Source: Candidatus Eiseniibacteriota bacterium (lineage in GTDB: Bacteria; Eisenbacteria; RBG-16-71-46; SZUA-252). From it: a stretch of DNA of 64,000 nucleotides. Positions 3,434 to 12,676 of the stretch are shown piece after piece (the stretch's first letter is position 1; each line of letters begins with the position of its first letter). A program made the translations under genes and the position numbers. The notes under the pieces were generated by a model. It saw only the letters and a list, made by a program, of their open reading frames with translations. It had not been told where the DNA came from and did no database searches. The DNA lies in contig VBOX01000085.1 of the NCBI GenBank assembly GCA_005893265.1, positions 5,017-69,016 on the forward strand, given 5' to 3'.

Positions 3434-3991
3434 TTAGTCCGCCTTACCATCGATAAGGCGTCGTTGATCGCGAATGCTGTCGACGCGAGACAATTTCCAG
3501 CCCTCAGAAGTCCTCCTCCAGATCTCGCGCTGCGTGACCCATGTCTCCACGTGGTGCACCAGACCGTCATTCCGGCGCGCGATTCGATCGGCATGCTGGC
3601 GTACGACAGCACGCGCGAGGTCGCCGGAGACCTCGAGGCTGTCGATCTCGAAGGTCAGCGAAATCCAGCGGTCGATTCCATCAAGGAGCGCGCGGGTGGA
3701 CTGCTCCATCTCGGCGCGGTAGTGCAGCACGCTGTCCGCGGTCACGGCGTGAAAGTCATCTGTTCGGAGCGCCATGATGGCATTGAAATCCTTTGCGAGG
3801 AAGGCGCGTCGATTTTCGTCATACCGGTGCTGCAGCTCGCGTCGAACGGCGGCCGAATCTAGTGCGCTCAGGTGCTGTGAGGGGGGTGACTTAGCAGTAC
3901 CAGCGCAACCCATCGCGCAGAGCATGGCGATCGCCATGAGGAAACGCATCGCGAGCACTATGCACCTGGGAAGTCTGGTCATGCAGGGCAC
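3434..3991 (-). CDS. Lipoprotein with NTF2-like (SnoaL/DUF4440-like) fold
   Basis: Signal peptide with a lipobox (LCAMGCAG). The true start is probably the internal Met near 3949 (MRFLMAIAML). The C-terminal W..E.W motif is typical of the NTF2-like superfamily. Confidence 0.5.
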   Translation of the reverse strand: MPCMTRLPRCIVLAMRFLMAIAMLCAMGCAGTAKSPPSQHLSALDSAAVRRELQHRYDENRRAFLAKDFNAIMALRTDDFHAVTADSVLHYRAEMEQSTRALLDGIDRWISLTFEIDSLEVSGDLARAVVRQHADRIARRNDGLVHHVETWVTQREIWRRTSEGWKLSRVDSIRDQRRLIDGKAD

Positions 3992-4044
3992 GAATCATAC
4001 GATCTGATCACCCACCAAGAAGATAGCAAAACGCCCTTGACAAC

Positions 4045-4058
4045 TGCACAAATGTGCA
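4045..4058. promoter_or_regulatory. Candidate LexA operator (SOS box): perfect palindrome TGCAC-AAAT-GTGCA
   Basis: The perfect 14-bp palindrome TGCACAAATGTGCA lies 15 bp upstream of the lexA ATG. From memory it fits the TGCNC-N4-GTGCA LexA-box class reported for Fibrobacteres. No second copy was found by eye elsewhere in the window. Confidence 0.55.
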
Positions 4059-4072
4059 CTATCCTATGTGTC

Positions 4073-4813
4073 ATGAGCAAGCCCAATCCGCCCAAGACGC
4101 CGGGGGGTGCCCGGAAGCGCAAGCCCAAGCGATTTGCCGCGATCGACGTGGGGGCCGATCGCGAGCAGGCGGTCCTGGACATGATTGCGGGGTCGCTTCG
4201 CGAGCAGGGACGGCCGCCCACGATCCGAGAAATCGGGGAGGCCTTCGGGATCGCCTCGACCAACGGGGTCCGCTACTACCTGGACCGCCTCGAGCGGGCG
4301 GGGAAGATCCACCGGGATCGCTGGACCTCGCGTGGGATCGGGCTCAAGGCGATTCCGGGAGGCGCCGCCGCGAGAGCATCCATCCCCGCGGTCCGCCCCA
4401 TTCCCGAGCACTCCACGCCACGCAACGCGATCGAAATTCCATTGCTGGGCCGCGTGGCCGCCGGCGCGCCGATTCTCGCCGAGGAAAATGTGGAGGACGT
4501 GCTCATCGTAGACGGCGCGTTCGTGCGGCCCGGCAAGCATTTCGCTCTCCGCGTGCGTGGGGACAGCATGAAGAACGCGGGGATCCTGGACGGCGACATC
4601 GCGATCGTGCACCACGACGCGCCGGTCAAGAGCGGAGAGATCGCGGTCGTGGTGATCGGCGAAGAGGCGACGGTGAAGCGCTTCTTCCCGCGTCGCGACA
4701 AGCTCCTCCTGATTCCCGAGAACGAGGACTACGAGCCGATCGAGGTGCGCCCGTCCGATCCCGATGTTCGGGTCGCGGGCAAGGTGGTGGGGGTTTTCCG
4801 GAGGCTTGGCTGA
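4073..4813 (+). CDS. lexA: LexA repressor (SOS regulator)
   Basis: An N-terminal wHTH (REIGEAFGIASTNGVRYYLDRLERAG) is followed by a linker and an S24 peptidase domain with catalytic Ser in the RVRGDSM motif and a Lys (KRF). The start is set at MSKPNPPK; the ORF-track start at 4037 would overlap the operator. Confidence 0.9.
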   Translation: MSKPNPPKTPGGARKRKPKRFAAIDVGADREQAVLDMIAGSLREQGRPPTIREIGEAFGIASTNGVRYYLDRLERAGKIHRDRWTSRGIGLKAIPGGAAARASIPAVRPIPEHSTPRNAIEIPLLGRVAAGAPILAEENVEDVLIVDGAFVRPGKHFALRVRGDSMKNAGILDGDIAIVHHDAPVKSGEIAVVVIGEEATVKRFFPRRDKLLLIPENEDYEPIEVRPSDPDVRVAGKVVGVFRRLG

Positions 4814-4815
4814 TG
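4799..4815 (+). repeat. 17-bp direct repeat copy 1 (CGGAGGCTTGGCTGATG), spanning the lexA stop and the next gene's start
   Basis: Exact 17-mer found again at 5232-5248. Contains a GGAGG RBS and ends in ATG. Confidence 0.8.
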
Positions 4816-5199
4816 ACACAGAGTCCAGTCGATACGGTCCGCCGGCTCGTCGCGGCGATCAACGCGGGTAACCTGGACGCCGCGGTCGCTCTCTACGAGC
4901 CTTCGGGAGTTCTCCTTTCCCCGGAGGGCGCCCCGGCCCGCGGTACGGCCGAGCTTCGCGCCGCGCTCGGAGGATTCATCGCGATGAAACCCAGGCTCGA
5001 GTCTCAGGCGGAGCGCGTCTTCGAATCGGGGGATCTCGCGCTCTACCTGAGTCGGTGGAGTCTCCACGGAACGGATCCCGGCGGGAAGCCGATCGCGCTC
5101 GCCGGGGAATCCACCGACGTGCTGCGGCGCCAGGCGGGCGGGAACTGGCTCATCGCGATCGACAATCCCTGGGGAGTGAAGACGCTGCCGCCCGCGTAG
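4813..5199 (+). CDS. NTF2-like / SnoaL-like (ketosteroid isomerase-like, DUF4440-type) protein
   Basis: 129-aa ORF whose ATG overlaps the lexA TGA (ATGA). Its pattern (VRRLVAAINAGNLDAAVALYEP...G....G) is typical of the NTF2-like superfamily. Confidence 0.6.
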   Translation: MTQSPVDTVRRLVAAINAGNLDAAVALYEPSGVLLSPEGAPARGTAELRAALGGFIAMKPRLESQAERVFESGDLALYLSRWSLHGTDPGGKPIALAGESTDVLRRQAGGNWLIAIDNPWGVKTLPPA

Positions 5200-5231
5200 G
5201 GAGGCTGACCGGGTTACTCGGGCTGGCATAT

Positions 5232-5248
5232 CGGAGGCTTGGCTGATG
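5232..5248 (+). repeat. 17-bp direct repeat copy 2 (CGGAGGCTTGGCTGATG)
   Basis: Identical to 4799-4815. Supplies the RBS and ATG of the small ORF at 5246. Confidence 0.8.
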
Positions 5249-5542
5249 GTCCATGCGAACTCATTTCCCAAGGCAAGCGACGGTTACTTCATGATCGAGT
5301 CGATCCACGATCCCATCGAAGTCATCACGATGTTCGGAAACGGAAAGATGCGCCCCATCCGATTCCGCTGGAAGAACAAGATCGTGAAGGTGGCCAAGGT
5401 GACGGGTGATTGGGTCCGCCACGAGGGGCAGAACAAGATCCACTACTTCGCGCTCCTGGCGGACAGCTCGGATTATTACGAGATCTGCTACAACGCGAAG
5501 GATATGACCTGGCAGCTCACCCGCGTCTGGATGGAAGGGTGA
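5246..5542 (+). CDS. Small uncharacterised protein (98 aa), AT-richer than its surroundings, immediately upstream of dinB
   Basis: An intact ORF with RBS+ATG supplied by the repeated 17-mer. It ends 6 nt before the dinB GTG start. Its composition is visibly less GC-rich than flanking genes. No family recognised. Confidence 0.45.
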   Translation: MVHANSFPKASDGYFMIESIHDPIEVITMFGNGKMRPIRFRWKNKIVKVAKVTGDWVRHEGQNKIHYFALLADSSDYYEICYNAKDMTWQLTRVWMEG

Positions 5543-5548
5543 CAGGCG

Positions 5549-6745
5549 GTGCGGGTCGTGCTGCACCTCGACATGGACTCGTTTTTCGCCTCGGTCGAAG
5601 AGAAGCTGAACCCGCGCCTCAAGGGGAAGCCGATCCTCGTCGGTGGCACGGAGCGGCGCGGTGTCGTCGCCTCGGCGAACTACGCGGCGCGCCCGTTCGG
5701 GATTCACGCCGGGATGCCCATGGCGGAGGCAAGGCGGCTCTGCCCGCACGCGGTCTTCGTCGAGGGTAATCCCCAGAAGTACGTCCACACGTCGCTTCAA
5801 TTCCTCGACGTATTGAAGAGCTTCACCCCCGCGGTGGAGCCGTTTAGCATCGATGAGGCGTTCCTCGATCTCACCCAGGTGCCTTATCCAGGCCGCCCCT
5901 CTCCCGAGGAACGCGACCCGGCGGTGATCCTCGACTCCGCGATCCCGGTCGCCCACGCGATCCAGCGCGCGGTCCAGCGACGCGTCGGGCTCACCGCCAC
6001 GATCGGGATCGCGCCCAACAAATACATCGCGAAGATGGCGAGCGGGGTGCAGAAGCCCCGGGGGCTCACAGTGTTGACCCTCGAGCGCTACCGTGAGCGG
6101 TTTTGGGAACGTGGGGTCCAAGAATTATGGGGGATCGGCGAAAAGACGAAGGAAGCGCTCGCCAAGCTCGGCATACGCACGATCGGACAGCTCGCGAAGT
6201 TTCCGCGTGAGTTCCTCACCTACCATTTCGGATTGAACGGCGAGCGGATGCAGGAGGCTGCGCTGGGACGCGACGAGAACCCGGTCATTCCGTACTACGA
6301 AGGGGTGCCAGTAAAATCGATGGGGCACGAGATCACGCTTTCGGAGGACGTCTCGGACAAAGAGGCGCTCAAGGCGCAACTGCTGCGTCTAAGCGACATG
6401 GTAGGCCGGCGGCTCCGCGCGGACGGCTACCTGGGAAGAATCATTTCCGTGAAGATCCGCGACTCGAAATTCCGTACCACGATCCGCCAGCGCGCGCTCC
6501 CGGAGGTTGTGGACGATGAGCACGAGATTTTCCACACGGCCGCATTGCTCCTCGAGGAGCATTGGGACGGGAGGCCTCTGCGGTTGATCGGAGTTTCCGT
6601 CTCGGGGCTGGTTTCCGCAGCGGGACACTACCAGCACAGCCTCTTCGGCCAGGATGAGCATCGTAGGAAGTTGCTCGAGGCGGTGGATTCGTTGAGAGAT
6701 CGCTTTGGGGAGACCTCGTTGGTGAAAGCTGGGGTGTTGCGGTGA
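5549..6745 (+). CDS. dinB: DNA polymerase IV (Y-family translesion polymerase)
   Basis: Starts VRVVLHLDMDSFFASVE (Y-family catalytic DMD motif), with a little-finger domain C-terminally. Length 398 aa; the start codon is GTG. Confidence 0.9.
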   Translation: MRVVLHLDMDSFFASVEEKLNPRLKGKPILVGGTERRGVVASANYAARPFGIHAGMPMAEARRLCPHAVFVEGNPQKYVHTSLQFLDVLKSFTPAVEPFSIDEAFLDLTQVPYPGRPSPEERDPAVILDSAIPVAHAIQRAVQRRVGLTATIGIAPNKYIAKMASGVQKPRGLTVLTLERYRERFWERGVQELWGIGEKTKEALAKLGIRTIGQLAKFPREFLTYHFGLNGERMQEAALGRDENPVIPYYEGVPVKSMGHEITLSEDVSDKEALKAQLLRLSDMVGRRLRADGYLGRIISVKIRDSKFRTTIRQRALPEVVDDEHEIFHTAALLLEEHWDGRPLRLIGVSVSGLVSAAGHYQHSLFGQDEHRRKLLEAVDSLRDRFGETSLVKAGVLR

Positions 6746-6782
6746 CATGCGCGTGGGTGGGCTTTACGGTTGGGACGGCGCG

Positions 6783-7643
6783 ATGATTCTCCTGGGCACT
6801 TCCGGCTACTCCTATCCTGATTGGGACGGCGTCTTCTATCCGCCGGGACTCGCTCGCGCAAAGCAGCTCGATTTCTACGTCCGCCAGTTCAAGACGGTCG
6901 AGGTCAACTCTACCTATTACCGGATCCCGCCGCCTTCGACCTTCGCCGCCATGGAGCGGAGGTCGCCGGCGGATTTCGAGTTCGTGGTGAAGGTGCACCA
7001 CGACATGACCCACGCCCAGACGCGCGACCCCGAGGCGTACGCTGCGTTCCATTCCGCCCTGGAGCCCCTGCGCCGCGCGCACAAGCTGAGCGGCGTGCTC
7101 GCGCAGTTCCCGCAGGCGTTCCACCGCTCGGAGGACCACGAGCGCTTCCTGACCGAGCTCCAGGAGCGGATGGAGGGCGCGCCGCTCTTCGTGGAGTTCC
7201 GGCACAACTCGTGGATGCACGAGGACGTGTTCGAATTCCTGGAGCGCGCGAGCCTGGGGTACGTGAGCGTGGACGAGCCTTCGCTTCCCGGGCTCCTGCC
7301 ACCGGTGGCGCGCGCGACAGGGGGGCTGGCGTATGTACGGTTCCATGGAAGGAATGCCAAGAGCTGGTACGCCGGGGACCAGGGCAAGGACTCGGACACC
7401 CCAAATGGTGCTCCCGCGCGTCCTGCCCGCGATCGCCGGCTTCTTCGCTACGACTATCTCTACTCCGAGGCGGAGCTCAAGGAATGGGCGGACAAGATTC
7501 GCGAGCTGAACCAGAAGACGCAGAAGACATTCGTCTTCTTCAACAACTGCCACGCGGGGCAGGCCGCGACAAGCGCCAAGCTCATGCGAAAGCTCCTCGA
7601 TATGCCGGAGCCCAGTTTCGCCGAGCAGACTGGATTGTTGTGA
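6783..7643 (+). CDS. DUF72 (YecE-like) family protein
   Basis: LLGTSGYSYPDW..FYP ... YVRFHGRN...WY...YDYLYSEAELKEW are signature DUF72 motifs. The ORF could begin at 6747, overlapping the dinB stop; the internal Met at 6783 is preferred. Confidence 0.75.
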   Translation: MILLGTSGYSYPDWDGVFYPPGLARAKQLDFYVRQFKTVEVNSTYYRIPPPSTFAAMERRSPADFEFVVKVHHDMTHAQTRDPEAYAAFHSALEPLRRAHKLSGVLAQFPQAFHRSEDHERFLTELQERMEGAPLFVEFRHNSWMHEDVFEFLERASLGYVSVDEPSLPGLLPPVARATGGLAYVRFHGRNAKSWYAGDQGKDSDTPNGAPARPARDRRLLRYDYLYSEAELKEWADKIRELNQKTQKTFVFFNNCHAGQAATSAKLMRKLLDMPEPSFAEQTGLL

Positions 7644-7691
7644 TCATGGCTCAGCTGCCTCCTCATCACCACCCCGTGACAAGGTGTTTCC

Positions 7692-8912
7692 ATGCAGAAC
7701 TACGCGCTGACCCATGTTGGTGATGAAGTCCTCCTTCGCGATCTGGCGGCGATTGTGGTTCGAGATCGCGCCACCACGGCGACCCTCTTGGCCTGTATCG
7801 CCGAGGTCGACGCCCGCCGGTTGTATGTCCCGGCGGGCTACTCATCCATGCATGCCTATTGCGTGGGCGAGCTACGCCTGTCAGAGGATGCGGCAAAGAA
7901 ACGCATTCAGGCGGCTCGGGCGGCTCGGCAATTCCCGGCCATCTTCCATGCTATCGCTGAAGGCAGACTTCATTTGACTGGGGTCTGCCTGCTTGCGCCG
8001 TATCTCACGACGGAAAACGCGAGGGGATTGATCGAGTCAGCGACCCACAAGCGCAAGACCGAAATCGAGGAGCTGCTTGCGAGGCACTTTCAGCTTCCAG
8101 ACGTGCGAGTGCGGCCCACGACACCAATTCATTCGGAGCTCCAGCTGGATGTGCCATCGCATAGCGGAGGAGATCCCGCACACGACGACAGCGCGCTCAG
8201 CCAAGGTGCGCCAGAGCACATCCCTAAATTACAAAGTGCGGTGCTACCTACTACCGCCGAGCGATTTCTCATGCAGCTCATTATTGCCAAGAGCACCCAC
8301 GACAAGCTACTGCACGCCCAAGCTTTACTGAGCCATGCCCTCCCCACCGGAGATGTTGCGCAGGTGCTCGACCGGGCGCTTGATGCTCTGATCGCACAGC
8401 TCGAGAAGCGCAAGCTCGGGGTCGTCACCCGTCGGCCTCGACGATCGACTGCAGGAAATCGCCCGGCCCCCCGGGGCCGCTACGTCCCGGCCCCTGTCCG
8501 GCGCGCCGTCTGGGAGCGGGATCGGGGTCAATGCACCTTCGTGAGCGCGAGCGGGACCCGCTGCACGGCACGCCGCTTCCTGGAATTCGACCATGTCGAC
8601 CCCGTGGCGCTAGGGGGACAGGCGTCCGTAGATCGAATGCGGCTGCGATGCCGCGCCCATAACCAGTACGAAGCCGAGCGGGTGTTCGGCGCGCGTTTCA
8701 TGAGACGAAAGCGACACGATGCACGGCTCGCGGCGGCAGAAGGAAGCGCGCGGCCCTCCAAAGAGCACACCGAGGCCGTGTTGGCCGGCCTACGCGTCCT
8801 CGGATGTAAGGCCAACGAGGCGCGCCGTGCGGTTGCGTTATCGGAAACCATCCCAGGCACCACGCTCGAGGAGCGCATGCGGCTCGCTCTCAAATCTCTC
8901 CGACCAGGGTGA
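7692..8912 (+). CDS. HNH endonuclease of the DUF222 (13E12-like) family with a RuvA-C-like tail
   Basis: An N-terminal DUF222-like region is followed by an HNH motif (C..C....FLEFDHVDP....G......L.C..HN). The C-terminal segment (EAVLAGLRVLGCKANEARRAV) resembles RuvA domain III. The 5' third of the gene is visibly AT-richer. Confidence 0.7.
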   Translation: MQNYALTHVGDEVLLRDLAAIVVRDRATTATLLACIAEVDARRLYVPAGYSSMHAYCVGELRLSEDAAKKRIQAARAARQFPAIFHAIAEGRLHLTGVCLLAPYLTTENARGLIESATHKRKTEIEELLARHFQLPDVRVRPTTPIHSELQLDVPSHSGGDPAHDDSALSQGAPEHIPKLQSAVLPTTAERFLMQLIIAKSTHDKLLHAQALLSHALPTGDVAQVLDRALDALIAQLEKRKLGVVTRRPRRSTAGNRPAPRGRYVPAPVRRAVWERDRGQCTFVSASGTRCTARRFLEFDHVDPVALGGQASVDRMRLRCRAHNQYEAERVFGARFMRRKRHDARLAAAEGSARPSKEHTEAVLAGLRVLGCKANEARRAVALSETIPGTTLEERMRLALKSLRPG

Positions 8913-8919
8913 TATTCGC

Positions 8920-11337
8920 ATGAAGACCAATCCCGTACGTTCGAGCCAGCAAGTCGGCCTAGGGGATCTGCTCGAACCTCAGCCGCGGCAGGCGGCGTCA
9001 CCCGCCGTCGAGTCGATCGAGGAATTCAAGACGCTCCTTCTCTCGCTGCAAGACGCTCGCGGCCGCGGCGAGCCCGAGCTGGTGCGCGCCCAGAGCCTGC
9101 CCGCTCGCCCTGCCCGCTACGGAGAGCTGGCCGAGCCGCTGCCTCGTGCGCTCGCGCACGTCCTCGATGCGCAGGGGATCGGGCGGCTCTACTCGCACCA
9201 GGCCGAGGCGATCGATCGCGCGCGCGCGGGGAAACACGTGGTGGTCGCGACCGGCACCGCCTCGGGGAAGTCGCTCGGGTATCACATTCCCGTTCTTGAG
9301 CGGCTCCTCCTCGAGAGGGAGGCCACCGCGCTCTACCTCTTCCCCACGAAGGCGCTCGCGCAGGATCAGCTCCGGGGGCTGCATCGCTTTGCGGACGCCT
9401 CGCGCGAGCTCGCCCTTGCCCTCGCGACCGGCACGTACGACGGCGATACGCCCGCCCCGGCGCGCCGGAAGCTTCGCGAGCGCGGGAACGCCATCCTCAC
9501 GAATCCCGACATGCTCCACCAGGGAATCCTGCCTTACCACGCGCGGTGGAGCAGGTTCCTCTCGAATCTGCGCTTTGTCGTCGTCGATGAGGTGCACACC
9601 TATCGGGGCATCTTCGGGTCTCACGTCGCGAACGTGCTCCGCCGCTTGAGGCGCATCGCCCGCCATTACGGCGCCGAGCCCCAATTCCTTCTCTCCTCGG
9701 CGACCGTCCGGAATCCACAAGAGCTGGCCGAGATTTTGGTGGGAGACGATGTCCACATCGTGGACAACGACGGCTCGCCGCGGGGCCCGAAACTCTTCGT
9801 CCTCTGGAACCCGCGCACCTTCGGCCCCGATTCGCCCGAGCGGCGAAGCGCCTCCGTCGATGCGGAGCGGATCCTGGTGGCCCTCATGAAGCGCGGGGTC
9901 CAGTCCATCGTCTTCACCAAAGCGCGCGTCGTCGCCGAGCTGATCTACCGCTACGCCCGCGAGCGGCTGGAGCGTGAGTCGCGGGGCCTGGCGGATCTCT
10001 TGAGCCCCTATAGAGGCGGGTACCTGCCCGAAGAAAGACGCGCGATCGAGCGACGGTTGTTCGACGGAGAGCTGCGCGGCGTCATATCGACCAACGCGCT
10101 CGAGCTTGGGATCGACGTCGGCTCGCTCGATGCCTCCATCCTCGTGGGATTCCCGAACACGATCGCGAGCACGTGGCAACAGGCGGGGCGCTCGGGCCGA
10201 AAGCAGGCGCCTTCGCTCGCGGTCGTGGTCGCATACGAGGACCCGGTCGACCAGTACCTCATGAGGCATCCTTCCTACTTCTTCGGCCAGTCGCCGGAAA
10301 ACGCGGTCCTGGATCCCGAGAACCCCTACGTGCTTGCCTCGCAGCTCTCGTGCGCCGCCTACGAGCTTCCTTTGAGGGAGGAGGACGAAGCGGTTTTCGG
10401 TCGCCGCGCCACGGCGATCGCCGAGCTTCTCGAGGAGGAAGGCTCGTTCAAGTCGCTCGACGGGCTCCGCTACTGGTCCTCCGCGGAGTACCCGGCGGGG
10501 AAGGTGAATCTGCGAACGATCTCGGACGACACATTCACCATCCTCGACCAGACGCGCGAGAACGCGGTCCTGGGCACGGTCGATTCGATCAGCGCGCCGG
10601 AGCTGTTGTATCCAGAAGCGATCTATCTTCACGAAGGCGACACCTATTTCGTCCGCGATCTTGATTTGAAGCAAAAGATTGCCTACGTCGAGCCGCGAGG
10701 GGTGGACTACTACACACAACCCGTGCTCGACACGCACTTGAAGCTCGAGGAGACGCGCGAATCGAAGAAGCTCGGAGGCGAGACGATCGGACTCGGGCCG
10801 GCGGCGGTTTCGTGGGCGACCGTCGCGATGAAGAAGATCCGGTTCCGGAGCCTCGACGCCATCGGCTATCACCCGCTGGATCTTCCACGGCAGAAGCTGG
10901 ACACCGTGGCGCTCTGGATCCAGCCGGGAGAGGGAACGCGAAATCAGGTCAAGATCGCCGGAATGAACCCGCGCGAGGGGATGTCGGGACTTCGCAACCT
11001 TCTCATCACTATTCTTCCGCTTCACGTCATGTGCGACCGGCCCGACATCGGCGGGATCCTGGACAGTGCGAATCTTGGAGAGCCCACGATTTTCATCTAC
11101 GACCGGTATCCGGGCGGACTGGGGTACGCCGAGCGCGGGTACGCGATCATCGGGGAGCTTTTGAGCGCTTCGCTCCGGCTGGTCGAGGACTGCCCGTGCG
11201 AGCTGGGATGTCCCTCCTGTGTCGGGCTACCTGTGCTGCGCCCCGCCCAACAGCAGGACCCGGATCTTTACGGAGGCTGGCCGATCCCGAGCAAGGCGGC
11301 GACCGTAGCGCTGCTGCGGCGGATGCTCGGCCGGTGA
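8920..11337 (+). CDS. mrfA: DEXH-box helicase with C-terminal DUF1998 zinc-finger domain (MrfA/YprA-like)
   Basis: Walker A (GTASGKS), a DEVH box (VVVDEVHTY) and helicase C motifs (QQAGRSGR) are present. The C-terminal Cys cluster DCPCELGCPSCVG is typical of DUF1998. The start is set at MKTNPV (ATG 8920), in frame with the longer track ORF. Confidence 0.8.
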   Translation: MKTNPVRSSQQVGLGDLLEPQPRQAASPAVESIEEFKTLLLSLQDARGRGEPELVRAQSLPARPARYGELAEPLPRALAHVLDAQGIGRLYSHQAEAIDRARAGKHVVVATGTASGKSLGYHIPVLERLLLEREATALYLFPTKALAQDQLRGLHRFADASRELALALATGTYDGDTPAPARRKLRERGNAILTNPDMLHQGILPYHARWSRFLSNLRFVVVDEVHTYRGIFGSHVANVLRRLRRIARHYGAEPQFLLSSATVRNPQELAEILVGDDVHIVDNDGSPRGPKLFVLWNPRTFGPDSPERRSASVDAERILVALMKRGVQSIVFTKARVVAELIYRYARERLERESRGLADLLSPYRGGYLPEERRAIERRLFDGELRGVISTNALELGIDVGSLDASILVGFPNTIASTWQQAGRSGRKQAPSLAVVVAYEDPVDQYLMRHPSYFFGQSPENAVLDPENPYVLASQLSCAAYELPLREEDEAVFGRRATAIAELLEEEGSFKSLDGLRYWSSAEYPAGKVNLRTISDDTFTILDQTRENAVLGTVDSISAPELLYPEAIYLHEGDTYFVRDLDLKQKIAYVEPRGVDYYTQPVLDTHLKLEETRESKKLGGETIGLGPAAVSWATVAMKKIRFRSLDAIGYHPLDLPRQKLDTVALWIQPGEGTRNQVKIAGMNPREGMSGLRNLLITILPLHVMCDRPDIGGILDSANLGEPTIFIYDRYPGGLGYAERGYAIIGELLSASLRLVEDCPCELGCPSCVGLPVLRPAQQQDPDLYGGWPIPSKAATVALLRRMLGR

Positions 11338-12221
11338 TCTCCTCCACGCTTCGGCAACGGATCGGGGAGATGCTCCGCGGCGAGGCTGCAGCTGGTCGCG
11401 CTGGCACGACGCTTGACCCCGCCGTGCGCCGTCCGCGCGAGCAGCGGATCGTACCCACTTCGATCGAGGACATCCTTCCCGGGGGCATGTTGATCGGTCG
11501 GGAGGGAGCCGTCTTCGTTCACGAACGGCTCTACACGGAGCTGAACGAGCGCCCGACCCCTCTGCTCAAAAAGTACGAGCAGATCGGGAGGCTGCCGGAC
11601 CCCGACGAGGCTCCCGTGCCCCACACGCTCCCTGAAGCGATCGAGGCGCTGGATCCGCCCGAGCGAGGACTCTTCCGGAAGTTCGGGCATCGCCGTATGC
11701 TGTTCCTCGATATCGAGACGTGCGGGCTTCAGTCGCAGCCTGTCTTTCTCGTCGGGCTCTGTCATGTCGGGGAGAGGAATCTCGTCTTGAGGCAGCTCTT
11801 CGCCCGCGACTACGCCGAGGAGCGTTCCCTGATCGCGGAGGTGGAGCGGGTTCTGGGCGAGCACGATTTTCTCGTCACCTACAATGGGAAGACCTTCGAC
11901 CTTCCGTTCCTGCGCCACCGCGCCGTGTACCACCGGCTGCGCTTCGAGACCCGGATCCCGCACCTGGACCTTCTCTGGATGGTGAGGCGCCGATGGAAGG
12001 ATCGTCTGCCCGATTGCAGACTCAAGACGCTCGAATGGCGCGTGCTGCGACGCCTGCGAGCAGGGGACATCGACGGCTCCGAGATTCCCGGCGCCTATCA
12101 CGAGTACGTGAAGCACGGCCAGCCGCACCGGCTCCTCCCTGTGTTCCACCACAACCTGCTCGATGTGGTCGCGATGGTTGAGCTTCTTCCGAGGCTCTTC
12201 GAGCCGGAGGAGGAGAGGTGA
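11334..12221 (+). CDS. mrfB: DEDDh 3'-5' exonuclease, RNase H-like (MrfB/YprB-like)
   Basis: Exo motifs I (FLDIETCGL), II (YNGKTFDLPFL) and III (HHNLLDVVAM) are present. The in-frame GTG at 11334 overlaps the helicase TGA (GTGA coupling); the alternative ATG is at 11370. Confidence 0.65.
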   Translation: MISSTLRQRIGEMLRGEAAAGRAGTTLDPAVRRPREQRIVPTSIEDILPGGMLIGREGAVFVHERLYTELNERPTPLLKKYEQIGRLPDPDEAPVPHTLPEAIEALDPPERGLFRKFGHRRMLFLDIETCGLQSQPVFLVGLCHVGERNLVLRQLFARDYAEERSLIAEVERVLGEHDFLVTYNGKTFDLPFLRHRAVYHRLRFETRIPHLDLLWMVRRRWKDRLPDCRLKTLEWRVLRRLRAGDIDGSEIPGAYHEYVKHGQPHRLLPVFHHNLLDVVAMVELLPRLFEPEEER

Positions 12222-12676
12222 AGCAAATCCGACTAGTAATTCTTGTCCTGGTTACTCTATTCGCGGGGTGCTCGGAGCAGCGATCAGGGTCACCCGTATC
12301 GAAGGCCCCCGACTCAACTAAGGCAGGTGGTCCCGCCGAAGATTGGTTGGCAACCACTAGGAGAGAGCGCGCGCTGAGTCCGCACCCCATACCGCAGTCG
12401 GATGTCGATCGCCTCAGGAGCCTCGGTTTCAAGAACCCAATCCGAGACATCATTGCGGACCTTCAAAGACACCCGGAGGTATTGCCGTTCCAGCCTCCGA
12501 AGGGTGGGAGCCGATTCGGGTTTTACGATTCGACCCAGATTCGGATCCTAACGGACGACTGGGTATACGCATACACTGAGGACGGCCATGTTGCGCGGCC
12601 GGTTCTGTTGAGATACCGGGTCCAAGAAGGCGGTCAAATTGAATGGAAGGTCATCGCGACGGATGGCGGCGAGTAG
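12218..12676 (+). CDS. Hypothetical lipoprotein
   Basis: Signal peptide plus lipobox (LFAGCS). Starts at an ATGA overlap with the exonuclease stop. AT-richer composition. Confidence 0.45.
   Translation: MKQIRLVILVLVTLFAGCSEQRSGSPVSKAPDSTKAGGPAEDWLATTRRERALSPHPIPQSDVDRLRSLGFKNPIRDIIADLQRHPEVLPFQPPKGGSRFGFYDSTQIRILTDDWVYAYTEDGHVARPVLLRYRVQEGGQIEWKVIATDGGE

Follow-up and report, generated by a model that had tools for sequence, protein, structure and literature searches.

A gene between lexA and dinB in a Candidatus Eisenbacteria operon almost certainly encodes a divergent standalone ImuB-C protein

[quoted passage not shown] The gene, which we call imuB-C, belongs to an operon headed by lexA and immediately precedes a gene for a Y-family DNA polymerase, and we think it probable, on balance, that this operon is LexA-repressed and that the protein serves the polymerase as an accessory. 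The family has already been described, so the protein is new only as a further, divergent member of it.

The frame codes for 98 residues, from an ATG to a TGA stop at 5540-5542, with a GGAGG ribosome-binding site (RBS) at 5233-5237, separated from the ATG by 8 nt, and a gap of 6 nt between its stop and the GTG start of dinB at 5549. An earlier note on this DNA had described a frame with RBS and ATG ending 6 nt before dinB, and its coordinates and translation were exact. It had also rightly called the frame AT-richer, since the GC content is 0.552 where the window averages 0.651, and lies within the lowest ~1% of 297-nt windows; its placement of the frame inside an operon stands as well, with the correction that two genes come before it, lexA and an inserted SnoaL-like gene, which makes it the third. 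The low GC content results from an amino-acid composition rich in K, I, F, Y, N and W: GC3 is 0.83, as compared with 0.81-0.85 in neighbouring genes, and GC1 and GC2 are 0.47 and 0.35. A foreign origin, as the low GC content might suggest, is ruled out by a GC3 equal to that of the neighbours. Spurious reading frames are common in GC-rich genomes (75 frames that reach 60 aa or more overlap the window's first 12 kb), and one could suppose that this frame arose by chance and is no gene. We give practically no credence to this supposition, which the conservation data effectively refute. An exhaustive profile search returned 514 cluster representatives (50% identity) at E<=1e-3, and the ~240 exact-sequence relatives of the protein, falling in two 90% clusters, come from Candidatus Eisenbacteria metagenome-assembled genomes, where they bear the label 'hypothetical protein'. 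Codon differences in the core are more often synonymous (8109) than non-synonymous (5342) and third positions vary most, neither the upstream GGAGG nor its spacing varies across 31 loci, GC3 is like that of the neighbours, and the AlphaFold2 (AF2) model is confident. The frame is a real, conserved gene that evolves as coding sequence.

The assignment to ImuB-C draws on profiles, on fold class and on conserved residues. Against Pfam PF20114 (DUF6504) the protein scores 20.9 bits (E 4.4e-4), below the gathering threshold of 24.2 bits, which is an operational limit; the model is matched at E<=0.01 by 93 of the 129 relatives, two relatives (P0004 and P0006) have precomputed PF20114 matches, and another (L072) reaches 24.5 bits. 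We read these scores as those of a divergent relative that the current DUF6504 model under-detects. An HMM of the 129 relatives, our family profile, matches the core of the protein at 1.8e-37. DUF6504 matches the C-terminus of ImuB from canonical imuA-imuB-dnaE2 cassettes with 25.0 bits in Novosphingobium and 27.9 bits in Shinella (cut-off 24.2). In hhalign, run against the C-terminal 100 aa of ImuB from cassettes that had been verified, the 129-sequence profile aligns to two ImuB C-termini with probabilities of 94.1% (E 1.2e-7; Novosphingobium ImuB residues ~520-605) and 81.3% (E 1.2e-5). The same profile aligns with 99.2% (E 8e-20) to an 84-aa Geobacter protein encoded next to lexA, to which BLASTP finds 36% identity (E 6e-15). 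This protein, ANA41728.1 of the Geobacter anodireducens plasmid pSD, is our stand-in for the prototype GSU0042, and its gene is flanked by lexA and a frameshifted dinB. The ImuB-C superfamily has been defined as a small (~80 residue) globular domain made mainly of beta-strands (Aravind et al. 2013, PMC3765255), and its published signature is found here, namely ~80 aa, an all-beta fold, an invariant C-terminal tryptophan and conserved basic residues. The tryptophan, W89, is present in 129/129 sequences, and lysine or arginine occupies position 45 in 77% of them, position 93 in 72%, and positions 39, 41 and 43 in 52-59%. The weak DUF6504 match, the matches of most relatives and the published superfamily together overturn the view of the earlier note that the protein could not be placed in any family.

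Other searches returned little. The protein has no match in PHROGs or in NCBIfam, and a PDB sequence search, run with the protein alone and again with the 129-sequence profile, gave nothing meaningful, the sole match being a fucose lectin at E 0.029. The term 'DUF6504' was not found in the literature searched. Several candidates were set aside: a match to JetB in PADLOC (E 0.012, 13 bits), dismissed as noise; P0080, a protein of 1346 aa showing 7 weak stretches, rejected as a repeat artefact; and a Ralstonia tblastn match (E 6), which falls outside any ImuB gene. A copy on a Pelobacter plasmid, interrupted by an in-frame stop and lacking lexA and dinB, is probably a relic, and one contig (L005) was left out as palindromic or chimeric and of low quality.

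The core beta domain covers residues 16-98 (5291-5539, forward strand), where family members of 80-88 aa align, and holds the HMM match, the AF2 strands and W89. AF2 folds the protein into six beta-strands, all-beta, with a pLDDT of 90.9 (88-95 in the strands) and a pTM of 0.82. Foldseek found no relative of this model in the PDB (best E 0.3, TM<=0.36) and, over the PDB and the BFVD viral models, no match reaching E<0.08 or TM>0.38. The core is preceded by a clade-specific 15-codon extension, MVHANSFPKASDGYF (5246-5290, forward strand), which most of the family, at ~83 aa, lacks. In 31 loci its variable codon sites number 7, 5 and 13 at first, second and third positions, and in ten full-length homologues A4, F7, P8, G13, Y14 and F15 are invariant within the consensus M-[VIL]-H-A-x-[ST]-F-P-x3-[DS]-G-Y-F; the pLDDT is ~72 for residues 1-10. 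UmuD' and YqjX have N-terminal arms that insert into their polymerases (2026 study). By analogy, the standalone ImuB-C of Eisenbacteria might have gained an arm that inserts into its polymerase, which would make a convergent, Pol V-like three-part mutasome, coupled through the operon to MrfAB-type crosslink repair and DUF72; we regard this scenario as a long shot.

The sole promoter-like site between 3800 and 12600 lies upstream of lexA at 4037-4065 (forward strand). It is sigma-70-like (TTGACA, 17 nt, TATCCT) and conserved almost base for base in 22 related loci. Within its spacer, at 4045-4058, stands the palindrome TGCAC-AAAT-GTGCA, which has one exact match in the window and by itself is no rarer there than chance; it is a candidate LexA operator (SOS box) because it is placed between the -35 and -10 elements and is conserved in the 22 loci. 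The LexA box of Fibrobacter reportedly reads TGCNCN4GTGCA, which the palindrome resembles, and LexA would be expected to bind TGCACAAATGTGCA. The lexA gene itself (4073-4813, forward strand) encodes 246 aa from an ATG at 4073, the mechanical frame starting from a TTG at 4037, and its product matches LexA_DNA_bind (3.9e-14) and Peptidase_S24 (1.1e-31) and carries the VAAGAP cleavage site, GDSM serine and VKRF lysine of the self-cleaving type. Since the ATG follows the -10 box by 7 nt, the transcript probably has little or no leader. Between lexA and imuB-C, a SnoaL/DUF4440-like gene (4813-5199, forward strand; SnoaL_2 9e-14, DUF4440 5e-12) begins with an ATG that overlaps the lexA stop codon. 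Among the relatives examined, this insertion occurs in the window and in one other locus (L018) only. A 17-nt junction, CGGAGGCTTGGCTGATG, made up of the lexA end, an RBS and an ATG, lies at 4799-4815 and recurs identically at 5232-5248 on the same strand, where the second copy supplies the RBS and ATG of imuB-C.

The arrangement of lexA, imuB-C and a Y-family polymerase gene, all on one strand in the window, is widely conserved. DinB is encoded downstream on the same strand in 30/35 species-level genome loci, 14/15 loci of a second clade and 5/7 distant cases; LexA is encoded upstream in 22/31, 16/17 and 5/7, respectively; and the full triad is present in 19/29, 9/10 and 5/7 evaluable loci. 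From Eisenbacteria to anammox Planctomycetes, ~80-90% of the loci that could be evaluated keep the order lexA, imuB-C, polymerase. The earlier note had proposed a survey of co-occurrence with such polymerase genes and had held that homologues scattered in unrelated contexts would speak against the link. Adjacency to a Y-family polymerase proved dominant (~85-90% of evaluable loci), and a minority of orphan copies do lie among unrelated genes. The note was right that the gene adjoins dinB and missed that its link to lexA is no less tight: in most Eisenbacteria loci the imuB-C ATG overlaps the lexA stop (ATGA or TGATG), with the RBS inside the 3' end of lexA. In a related sediment clade, a UmuD-like S24-only gene and imuB-C stand together ahead of one polymerase gene in one operon, a hint of a mutasome of four components, so far undescribed.

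The polymerase gene (dinB/polY; 5549-6745, forward strand) encodes 398 aa from a GTG start, and the product matches IMS (1.5e-47), IMS_C (3.4e-30) and, over its full length, NCBIfam Pol IV models (up to 2.5e-108). It contains the catalytic motifs DMDSFF and SIDEAF; to judge by these it is catalytically intact and apparently active. Its tail bears a motif of the beta-clamp-binding type, QHSLF (6632-6646), read from the sequence; most of the related polymerases examined have a QxxLF-type motif in the corresponding position, and in some distant ones it is degenerate. The C-terminus carries a candidate RecA-NT-like motif, DEHRRKLLEAVDSLRDRFGETSLVKAGVL (6653-6739), conserved in 25 related polymerases. 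The tail profile aligns to E. coli RecA residues 5-33 in hhalign (probability 61%, E 8e-5, a short match of moderate score), and the 41-aa tail has no Pfam RecA match. A class of polymerase C-terminal extensions with a RecA-NT motif has been described (PMC6511836).

Downstream, on the same strand, comes a DUF72 gene (6747-7643; DUF72 1.4e-63), which follows dinB in most Eisenbacteria loci, and then a 406-aa frame (7692-8912) with no confident family, weak matches to RuvA_C and HNH_5 only, and a GC3 of 0.68, below that of its neighbours. Only the closest relatives have it (tblastn positives L016, L017, L019 and L020). A 406-aa uncharacterised product is encoded at the same relative position on contig L006, a likeness of length and place. 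Two further genes are conserved in the operon: an MrfA-like SF2 helicase (8719-11337; DEAD, Helicase_C, WHD_HRQ1 and MZB), whose true start is uncertain, and after it an MrfB-like exonuclease of the RNase_H_2 family (10812-12221; 6.4e-32 over residues 297-459 of the mechanical frame), whose true start is probably near 11337. In tblastn, ImuA, DnaE2 and RecA were not found within the 64-kb window.

We propose that DNA damage would lead to RecA-stimulated self-cleavage of LexA and thereby de-repress an operon that runs from the promoter/operator through lexA, the SnoaL-like gene where present, imuB-C, polY/dinB, DUF72 and the unassigned frame to the mrfA-like helicase and mrfB-like exonuclease genes. 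ImuB-C and the polymerase would be made together from adjacent, closely spaced cistrons, possibly by translational coupling, and ImuB-C would be a non-catalytic accessory subunit of a translesion complex of the PolY-RecA type. In such a complex the polymerase would bind the clamp via QHSLF and RecA via its RecA-NT-like tail, while ImuB-C, itself perhaps binding the polymerase or RecA, would supply a protein-protein interface like the one formed for ImuA and DnaE2 when the domain is fused in ImuB. We incline, with modest conviction, to the view that ImuB-C is an accessory subunit of the translesion polymerase that works in this manner. AlphaFold models of the mycobacterial mutasome have ImuB-C as a beta-barrel contacting DnaE2 and ImuA, and transcript data for the module as a damage-induced single unit come from Geobacter only (PMC6511836); in the window such a unit is indicated indirectly, by the single promoter-like site with its conserved palindrome upstream of lexA and by gaps between genes that are short or replaced by overlaps. 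Both the conserved gene order and the published view of the family agree with the suggestion of the earlier note that the protein is a small accessory partner of a Y-family polymerase. Standalone ImuB-C genes have also been found next to Ku/ligase and SplB genes (PMC3765255), and these contexts argue against an obligate, polymerase-only partnership.

Other roles have to be weighed against that of a polymerase accessory. ImuB-C has been proposed to act as a DNA-damage sensor, a small DNA-binding domain that would detect lesions or stalled structures and call in the product of any neighbouring repair gene (Aravind et al. 2013, PMC3765255). The conserved basic residues and the lack of any catalytic-looking motif would suit a binding domain, as would the published contexts without a polymerase (Ku/ligase, SplB photolyase-like and SRAP genes; PMC3765255) and the DUF72 and MrfAB-like repair genes of this operon. 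The orphan copies, with neither lexA nor a polymerase gene within ~7 kb and with unrelated genes as neighbours, point in the same direction; they make up 4/29 fully evaluable genome loci, with L061, L063 and L093 in addition, and those that bear on this proposal are L030, L033, L041, L044, L061 and L093. However, polymerase adjacency is far dominant, the fold is unlike known DNA-binding folds in the PDB by Foldseek, and for the domain fused in ImuB both models and genetics point to contacts with the proteins DnaE2 and ImuA, not with DNA (PMC6511836; 2026 study), which leaves a sensor role rather unlikely in our view. The tight linkage to lexA raises another option, that ImuB-C modulates the LexA/SOS switch by acting on LexA cleavage, on DNA binding or on RecA filament activity. 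Overlap of its ATG with the lexA stop and an RBS within lexA would fit this, and so would the 10/30 loci in which 0.9-6.5 kb insertions separate imuB-C from dinB while imuB-C stays joined to lexA, and two loci (L001 and L002) with lexA and imuB-C where a polymerase was not found nearby. Yet insertions between lexA and imuB-C (6/22 loci, the window included) are about as frequent, five loci (L049-L053) have an imuB-C-dinB pair with no lexA in the 1.7-7 kb upstream, and when fused, the domain belongs to ImuB rather than to a regulator. We consider such a modulator distinctly improbable.

Least probable among these roles, and to our mind very nearly out of the question, is a subunit of the UmuD/YolD type, either a divergent member or a structural analogue with an arm inserted in the polymerase. 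The place of the gene beside a Y-family polymerase under presumptive LexA control does parallel umuDC and yqjX-yqjW (PMC6511836), and the 15-residue extension before the barrel loosely recalls the UmuD'/YqjX arms, so that the positional resemblance pointed out in the earlier note stands. Kinship does not: in line with the statement there that no sequence similarity was recognised, the protein has no Peptidase_S24 or YolD (PF08863) match at E<=1, and Foldseek yields no UmuD, LexA or SH3-like match in the PDB. The six-stranded all-beta fold without a PDB relative is therefore neither UmuD- nor YolD-like, the ImuB-C barrel being unlike the SH3 barrel of UmuD'/YqjX (2026 study), and most family members have no N-terminal extension. 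Moreover, the sediment clade encodes an S24-only UmuD-like protein and ImuB-C in one operon, and the two are therefore not simple substitutes. Membership of the UmuD/YolD group is already contradicted.

Turning back to a polymerase accessory, the closest counterpart is the published lexA-imuB-C-polY module (PMC3765255; PMC6511836), which shares with the window the ~83-aa all-beta core, the C-terminal Trp and the order lexA, ImuB-C, polymerase. A LexA of self-cleaving type, a promoter with a candidate operator and an apparently intact polymerase with clamp motif match as well, and the polymerase tail, moderately similar to RecA-NT, may do so too. The window differs in its 15-residue N-terminal extension, its SnoaL insert and the DUF72, MrfA-like and MrfB-like genes downstream, and its host, Candidatus Eisenbacteria, is absent from the described hosts, which are delta-proteobacteria, Deferribacteres, Planctomycetes and Clostridia (PMC3765255; PMC6511836). 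[quoted passage not shown] ImuB, however, carries the domain attached to an inactive polymerase, and the partners it binds there are ImuA and the PHP domain of DnaE2, whereas here it is a separate protein beside an apparently active polymerase, with no imuA or dnaE2 in the 64-kb window. [quoted passage not shown] In these cassettes the protein is paired with DnaE2, to which an inactive PolY may or may not be added; in the window its partner is an active-looking PolY of the DinB type without DnaE2. UmuD' of Pol V and YolD/YqjX are likewise small, LexA-controlled and associated with a RecA-contacting Y-family polymerase, an analogy drawn from the literature (PMC6511836), but they are unrelated to ImuB-C in fold and sequence, and ImuB-C has no autoproteolytic motif.

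Our analysis closes an annotation gap rather than reporting a discovery. Thousands of metagenomic copies of the protein are labelled 'hypothetical' because DUF6504 under-detects this branch and Pfam does not carry the name ImuB-C. Once ImuB-C is recognised, the locus can be read as a compact, LexA-controlled operon for translesion synthesis and repair in an uncultured phylum of the FCB group. The role of a standalone ImuB-C beside an active Y-family polymerase bears on how bacteria license mutagenic synthesis, and this lineage, with an apparently active PolY and ImuB-C and neither DnaE2 nor ImuA nearby, offers a clean two-partner system in which to test it.

Comparison with its relatives indicates that the 98-codon frame upstream of the polymerase gene is genuine. 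It runs from the ATG at 5246 to the TGA at 5540-5542 on the forward strand, with a gap of 6 nt to the dinB start, as the earlier note had described together with the translation, which we reproduced. GGAGG stands at 5233-5237, 8 nt before the ATG, and the dinB GTG is at 5549. The neighbour is rightly called dinB, since it matches Pfam IMS (1.5e-47) and IMS_C (3.4e-30), as well as the NCBIfam Pol IV models (up to 2.5e-108). The ORF had also been regarded as AT-richer than its surroundings, and its GC content is indeed low (0.552 vs 0.651 for the window, among the lowest ~1% of 297-nt windows), but its GC3 of 0.83 is at the level of lexA, dinB and DUF72 (0.81-0.85), and it is GC1 (0.47) and GC2 (0.35) that are low. 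The AT-richness is thus an effect of amino-acid composition in a native gene and does not point to foreign DNA. MAGs of Candidatus Eisenbacteria contain identical proteins under the label 'hypothetical protein' (TMQ53406.1, HEY3156645.1). A word-indexed search with the window protein gave 18 relatives, and scanning 1.84 billion cluster representatives exhaustively with a profile gave 514 at E<=1e-3 and 99 at E<=1e-10, nearly all of 80-88 aa and aligning to query residues 16-98. Across 31 close loci, third codon positions are the most variable and the core codon differences are 8109 synonymous vs 5342 non-synonymous. The family core starts at M16, and the Eisenbacteria clade has 15 additional codons. 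In this clade the 98-aa form is likely the product, because variation in the extension is dominated by third positions (7/5/13 variable sites per codon position), residues A4, F7, P8, G13, Y14 and F15 are invariant in 10/10 full-length homologues, the GGAGG ahead of the extension ATG is invariant, and this ATG overlaps the lexA stop codon in most loci (ATGA or TGATG).

The protein, which the earlier note could not place in any family, is assigned by a Pfam match and by profile matches to a Geobacter homologue and to the C-termini of ImuB proteins. Its sole Pfam match is DUF6504 (PF20114; 20.9 bits, E 4.4e-4), below the cut-off of 24.2, and 93 of the 129 aligned relatives match the same model (best E 8.7e-9). 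Three loci establish that DUF6504 is the domain named ImuB-C in the literature. On a Novosphingobium plasmid, within a cassette annotated as imuA, 'DNA polymerase Y family protein' and 'error-prone DNA polymerase', it lies above threshold at residues 531-603 of a 607-aa ImuB; on the Shinella plasmid pShin-01 (locus L067, 1981-3504), a full-length ImuB between an ImuA-position gene and dnaE2 consists of IMS, IMS_C and a C-terminal DUF6504; and a Nonomuraea protein consisting of DUF6504 on its own (58.9 bits) adjoins dnaE2. The RefSeq label of the Shinella protein, 'DUF6504 family protein', is an annotation quirk that masks its identity. ImuB-C was defined from Geobacter sulfurreducens GSU0042 (Aravind, Anand and Iyer 2013, PMC3765255) as an all-beta domain of ~80 residues in which a C-terminal Trp and basic residues are conserved; it was noted either as a part of ImuB or as a protein of its own, mostly beside dinB and often with lexA. 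W89 is invariant in our family (129/129), and K or R occupies positions 45 and 93 in 77% and 72% of the sequences. A Geobacter anodireducens plasmid has the order lexA, 84-aa 'hypothetical protein', frameshifted dinB; this 84-aa protein matches the family profile (99.2%, E 8e-20) and is 36% identical to the window protein (E 6e-15). The profile also matches the last 100 residues of two ImuB proteins (94.1%, E 1.2e-7; 81.3%, E 1.2e-5), with significance of the same order as in the original ImuB-C paper. The Geobacter module is damage-induced as one transcription unit, according to evidence cited in PMC6511836, where the module polymerases are described as bearing a RecA-NT-like motif and imuA as absent. 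Routine annotation misses the window protein because its score falls just under the Pfam threshold and the Pfam name is only a DUF.

The gene neighbourhood was surveyed with three HMMs, for LexA, for the polymerase and for ImuB-C, run on six-frame translations of all fetched loci, the denominators being those with flanking sequence long enough to evaluate. Among 38 species-level genome loci, mostly from Eisenbacteria and also from Krumholzibacteriia and Latescibacterota, a polymerase follows on the same strand in 30/35, LexA precedes in 22/31, and the full triad is present in 19/29 (four orphans). The corresponding values are 14/15, 16/17 and 9/10 (one orphan) in a sediment-metagenome clade 40-46% identical to the window protein, and 5/7 for each (two orphans) in distant members at ~30% identity, from Jettenia and other MAGs and two plasmids. 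Such neighbours dominate in the co-occurrence survey that the earlier note had proposed, and the homologues, apart from the few orphans, are not scattered over unrelated contexts. The commonest gap to the polymerase is 7 nt. In 10/30 loci the ORF and dinB are held apart by inserted DNA of 0.9-6.5 kb, and in 6/22 an insertion separates lexA from the ORF. At L056/L057 (6348-6988) a Gp49/HTH (HigB/HigA-like) toxin-antitoxin pair lies between imuB-C and the polymerase, and several further toxin-antitoxin genes lie just 5' of lexA in the same locus. In L030 (5903-7297), on a contig assigned to a Hyphomicrobiales bin, the ImuB-C region shares its reading frame with an upstream-extending open stretch of 464 aa that has no Pfam match; neither lexA nor polymerase was found at this locus, and the apparent fusion is probably a GC-rich read-through artefact. 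The whole contig L005, with fragments of lexA, imuB-C and dinB on both strands in mirror order and many frameshifts, appears to be an artefact of assembly, palindromic or chimeric in kind; the relatives P0016 and P0017 come from low-quality contigs of this kind.

In the window, a SnoaL/DUF4440-like gene (4813-5199) has been inserted precisely where lexA and imuB-C would otherwise meet. The junction sequence of 17 nt, CGGAGGCTTGGCTGATG, spanning the lexA end, RBS and ATG, occurs on either side of it (4799-4815 and 5232-5248), such that the inserted gene and imuB-C each retain an RBS and a start. Relatives without the insertion, e.g. L017, have one copy, and among related loci only the window and L018 carry it. 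A second SnoaL/DUF4440-like gene (3434-3991, reverse strand) lies directly 5' of the lexA promoter, so that two members of the superfamily flank lexA. Within 3800-12600 this promoter is the sole sigma-70-like site; it consists of TTGACA at 4037, a spacer of 17 nt and TATCCT, whose last base is 4065. The spacer contains the palindrome TGCAC-AAAT-GTGCA (TGCACAAATGTGCA, 4045-4058), and promoter and palindrome are kept nearly base for base 5' of lexA in 22 loci. We read the palindrome as a candidate LexA operator. It resembles TGCNCN4GTGCA, probably the LexA box of Fibrobacter, a likeness that would accord with a phylum of the FCB group. The lexA ATG at 4073 follows the -10 box by just 7 nt (7-13 nt overall), which suggests a leaderless or near-leaderless mRNA. 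LexA itself carries a VAAGAP cleavage motif together with the serine of GDSM and the lysine of VKRF.

The polymerase retains the catalytic motifs DMDSFF and SIDEAF and ends with QHSLF, of the clamp-binding type, followed by a tail, DEHRRKLLEAVDSLRDRFGETSLVKAGVL, that is conserved in 25 related polymerases and whose profile aligns moderately well with the oligomerisation motif of E. coli RecA (residues 5-33; 61% probability, E 8e-5). Downstream (6747-12221) are DUF72, a 406-aa ORF, an MrfA-like helicase (DEAD, Helicase_C, WHD_HRQ1, MZB) and an MrfB-like RNase_H_2 exonuclease; in Eisenbacteria the LexA-headed operon reaches past dinB into the DUF72, helicase and exonuclease genes. The order of DUF72, helicase and exonuclease is kept out to relatives with ImuB-C 54% identical (L007-L010, L012, L013), and we found no mention in the literature consulted of a translesion module linked to MrfAB-like genes and DUF72. 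The 406-aa ORF (7692-8912) could not be assigned to a family with confidence, its matches to RuvA_C and HNH_5 being weak. It was found by tblastn in the closest relatives only (L016, L017, L019, L020), has a GC3 of 0.68, clearly below the 0.81-0.85 of its neighbours, and runs at its 3' end over the helicase ORF's mechanical start; on contig L006 an uncharacterised 406-aa product is called at the corresponding place in the gene order. No DnaE2, ImuA or RecA was found in the 64-kb window.

A 2021 review called the role of standalone ImuB-C 'not clear'. Homology, fold class, gene order and sequence motifs are what the analysis shows; the best-supported reading of the mechanism is that LexA would repress the operon by binding the palindrome embedded in its promoter, that self-cleavage of LexA upon DNA damage and RecA filament formation would induce it, that ImuB-C and the polymerase would be produced jointly, possibly with translational coupling, and that ImuB-C would be a small non-catalytic subunit of a translesion complex of the PolY-RecA type, where it may dock proteins by analogy with the ImuB-fused domain, which does so for ImuA and DnaE2. 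The original 2013 proposal makes ImuB-C a lesion-sensing DNA-binding protein, which orphan copies and non-polymerase contexts would favour; the orphans are few, and their neighbours are genes of no related function, such as those for a PKD surface protein, an M43/ricin protein and a lipocalin-like protein. ImuB-C might instead act on LexA, in line with the overlap between the ORF start and the lexA stop codon.

The earlier note had thought of UmuD or YolD. The AlphaFold2 model, computed from 43 aligned sequences, has six beta-strands and is confident (pLDDT 90.9, pTM 0.82), with lower confidence limited to the first ~10 residues; neither the PDB (best E 0.3, TM<=0.36) nor the viral models searched with Foldseek contained a relative. 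This agrees with a 2026 account (PMC12926913), by which the beta-barrel of ImuB-C has no close relatives in the PDB and differs from the SH3 barrel of UmuD'/YqjX. A UmuD/YolD-type subunit therefore fails as a claim of membership and remains a loose analogy. In the sediment clade, the operon of L072 (3745-6788) encodes LexA (219 aa), a UmuD-like S24-only protein without DNA-binding domain (148 aa), ImuB-C (DUF6504 at 24.5 bits) and PolY (410 aa), and the same type occurs in L071, L073, L075, L078-L080, L082-L084, L086, L092, L097 and L104. A UmuD-like gene and imuB-C hence coexist 5' of a single polymerase, an arrangement of which we found no description in the literature consulted.

Standalone ImuB-C is itself a known family, and what is undescribed for it is the host phylum of the window gene. 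The local features of note are the clade-specific N-terminal extension, the SnoaL insertion that duplicated the junction, and an operon that reaches to DUF72 and the MrfAB-like genes.
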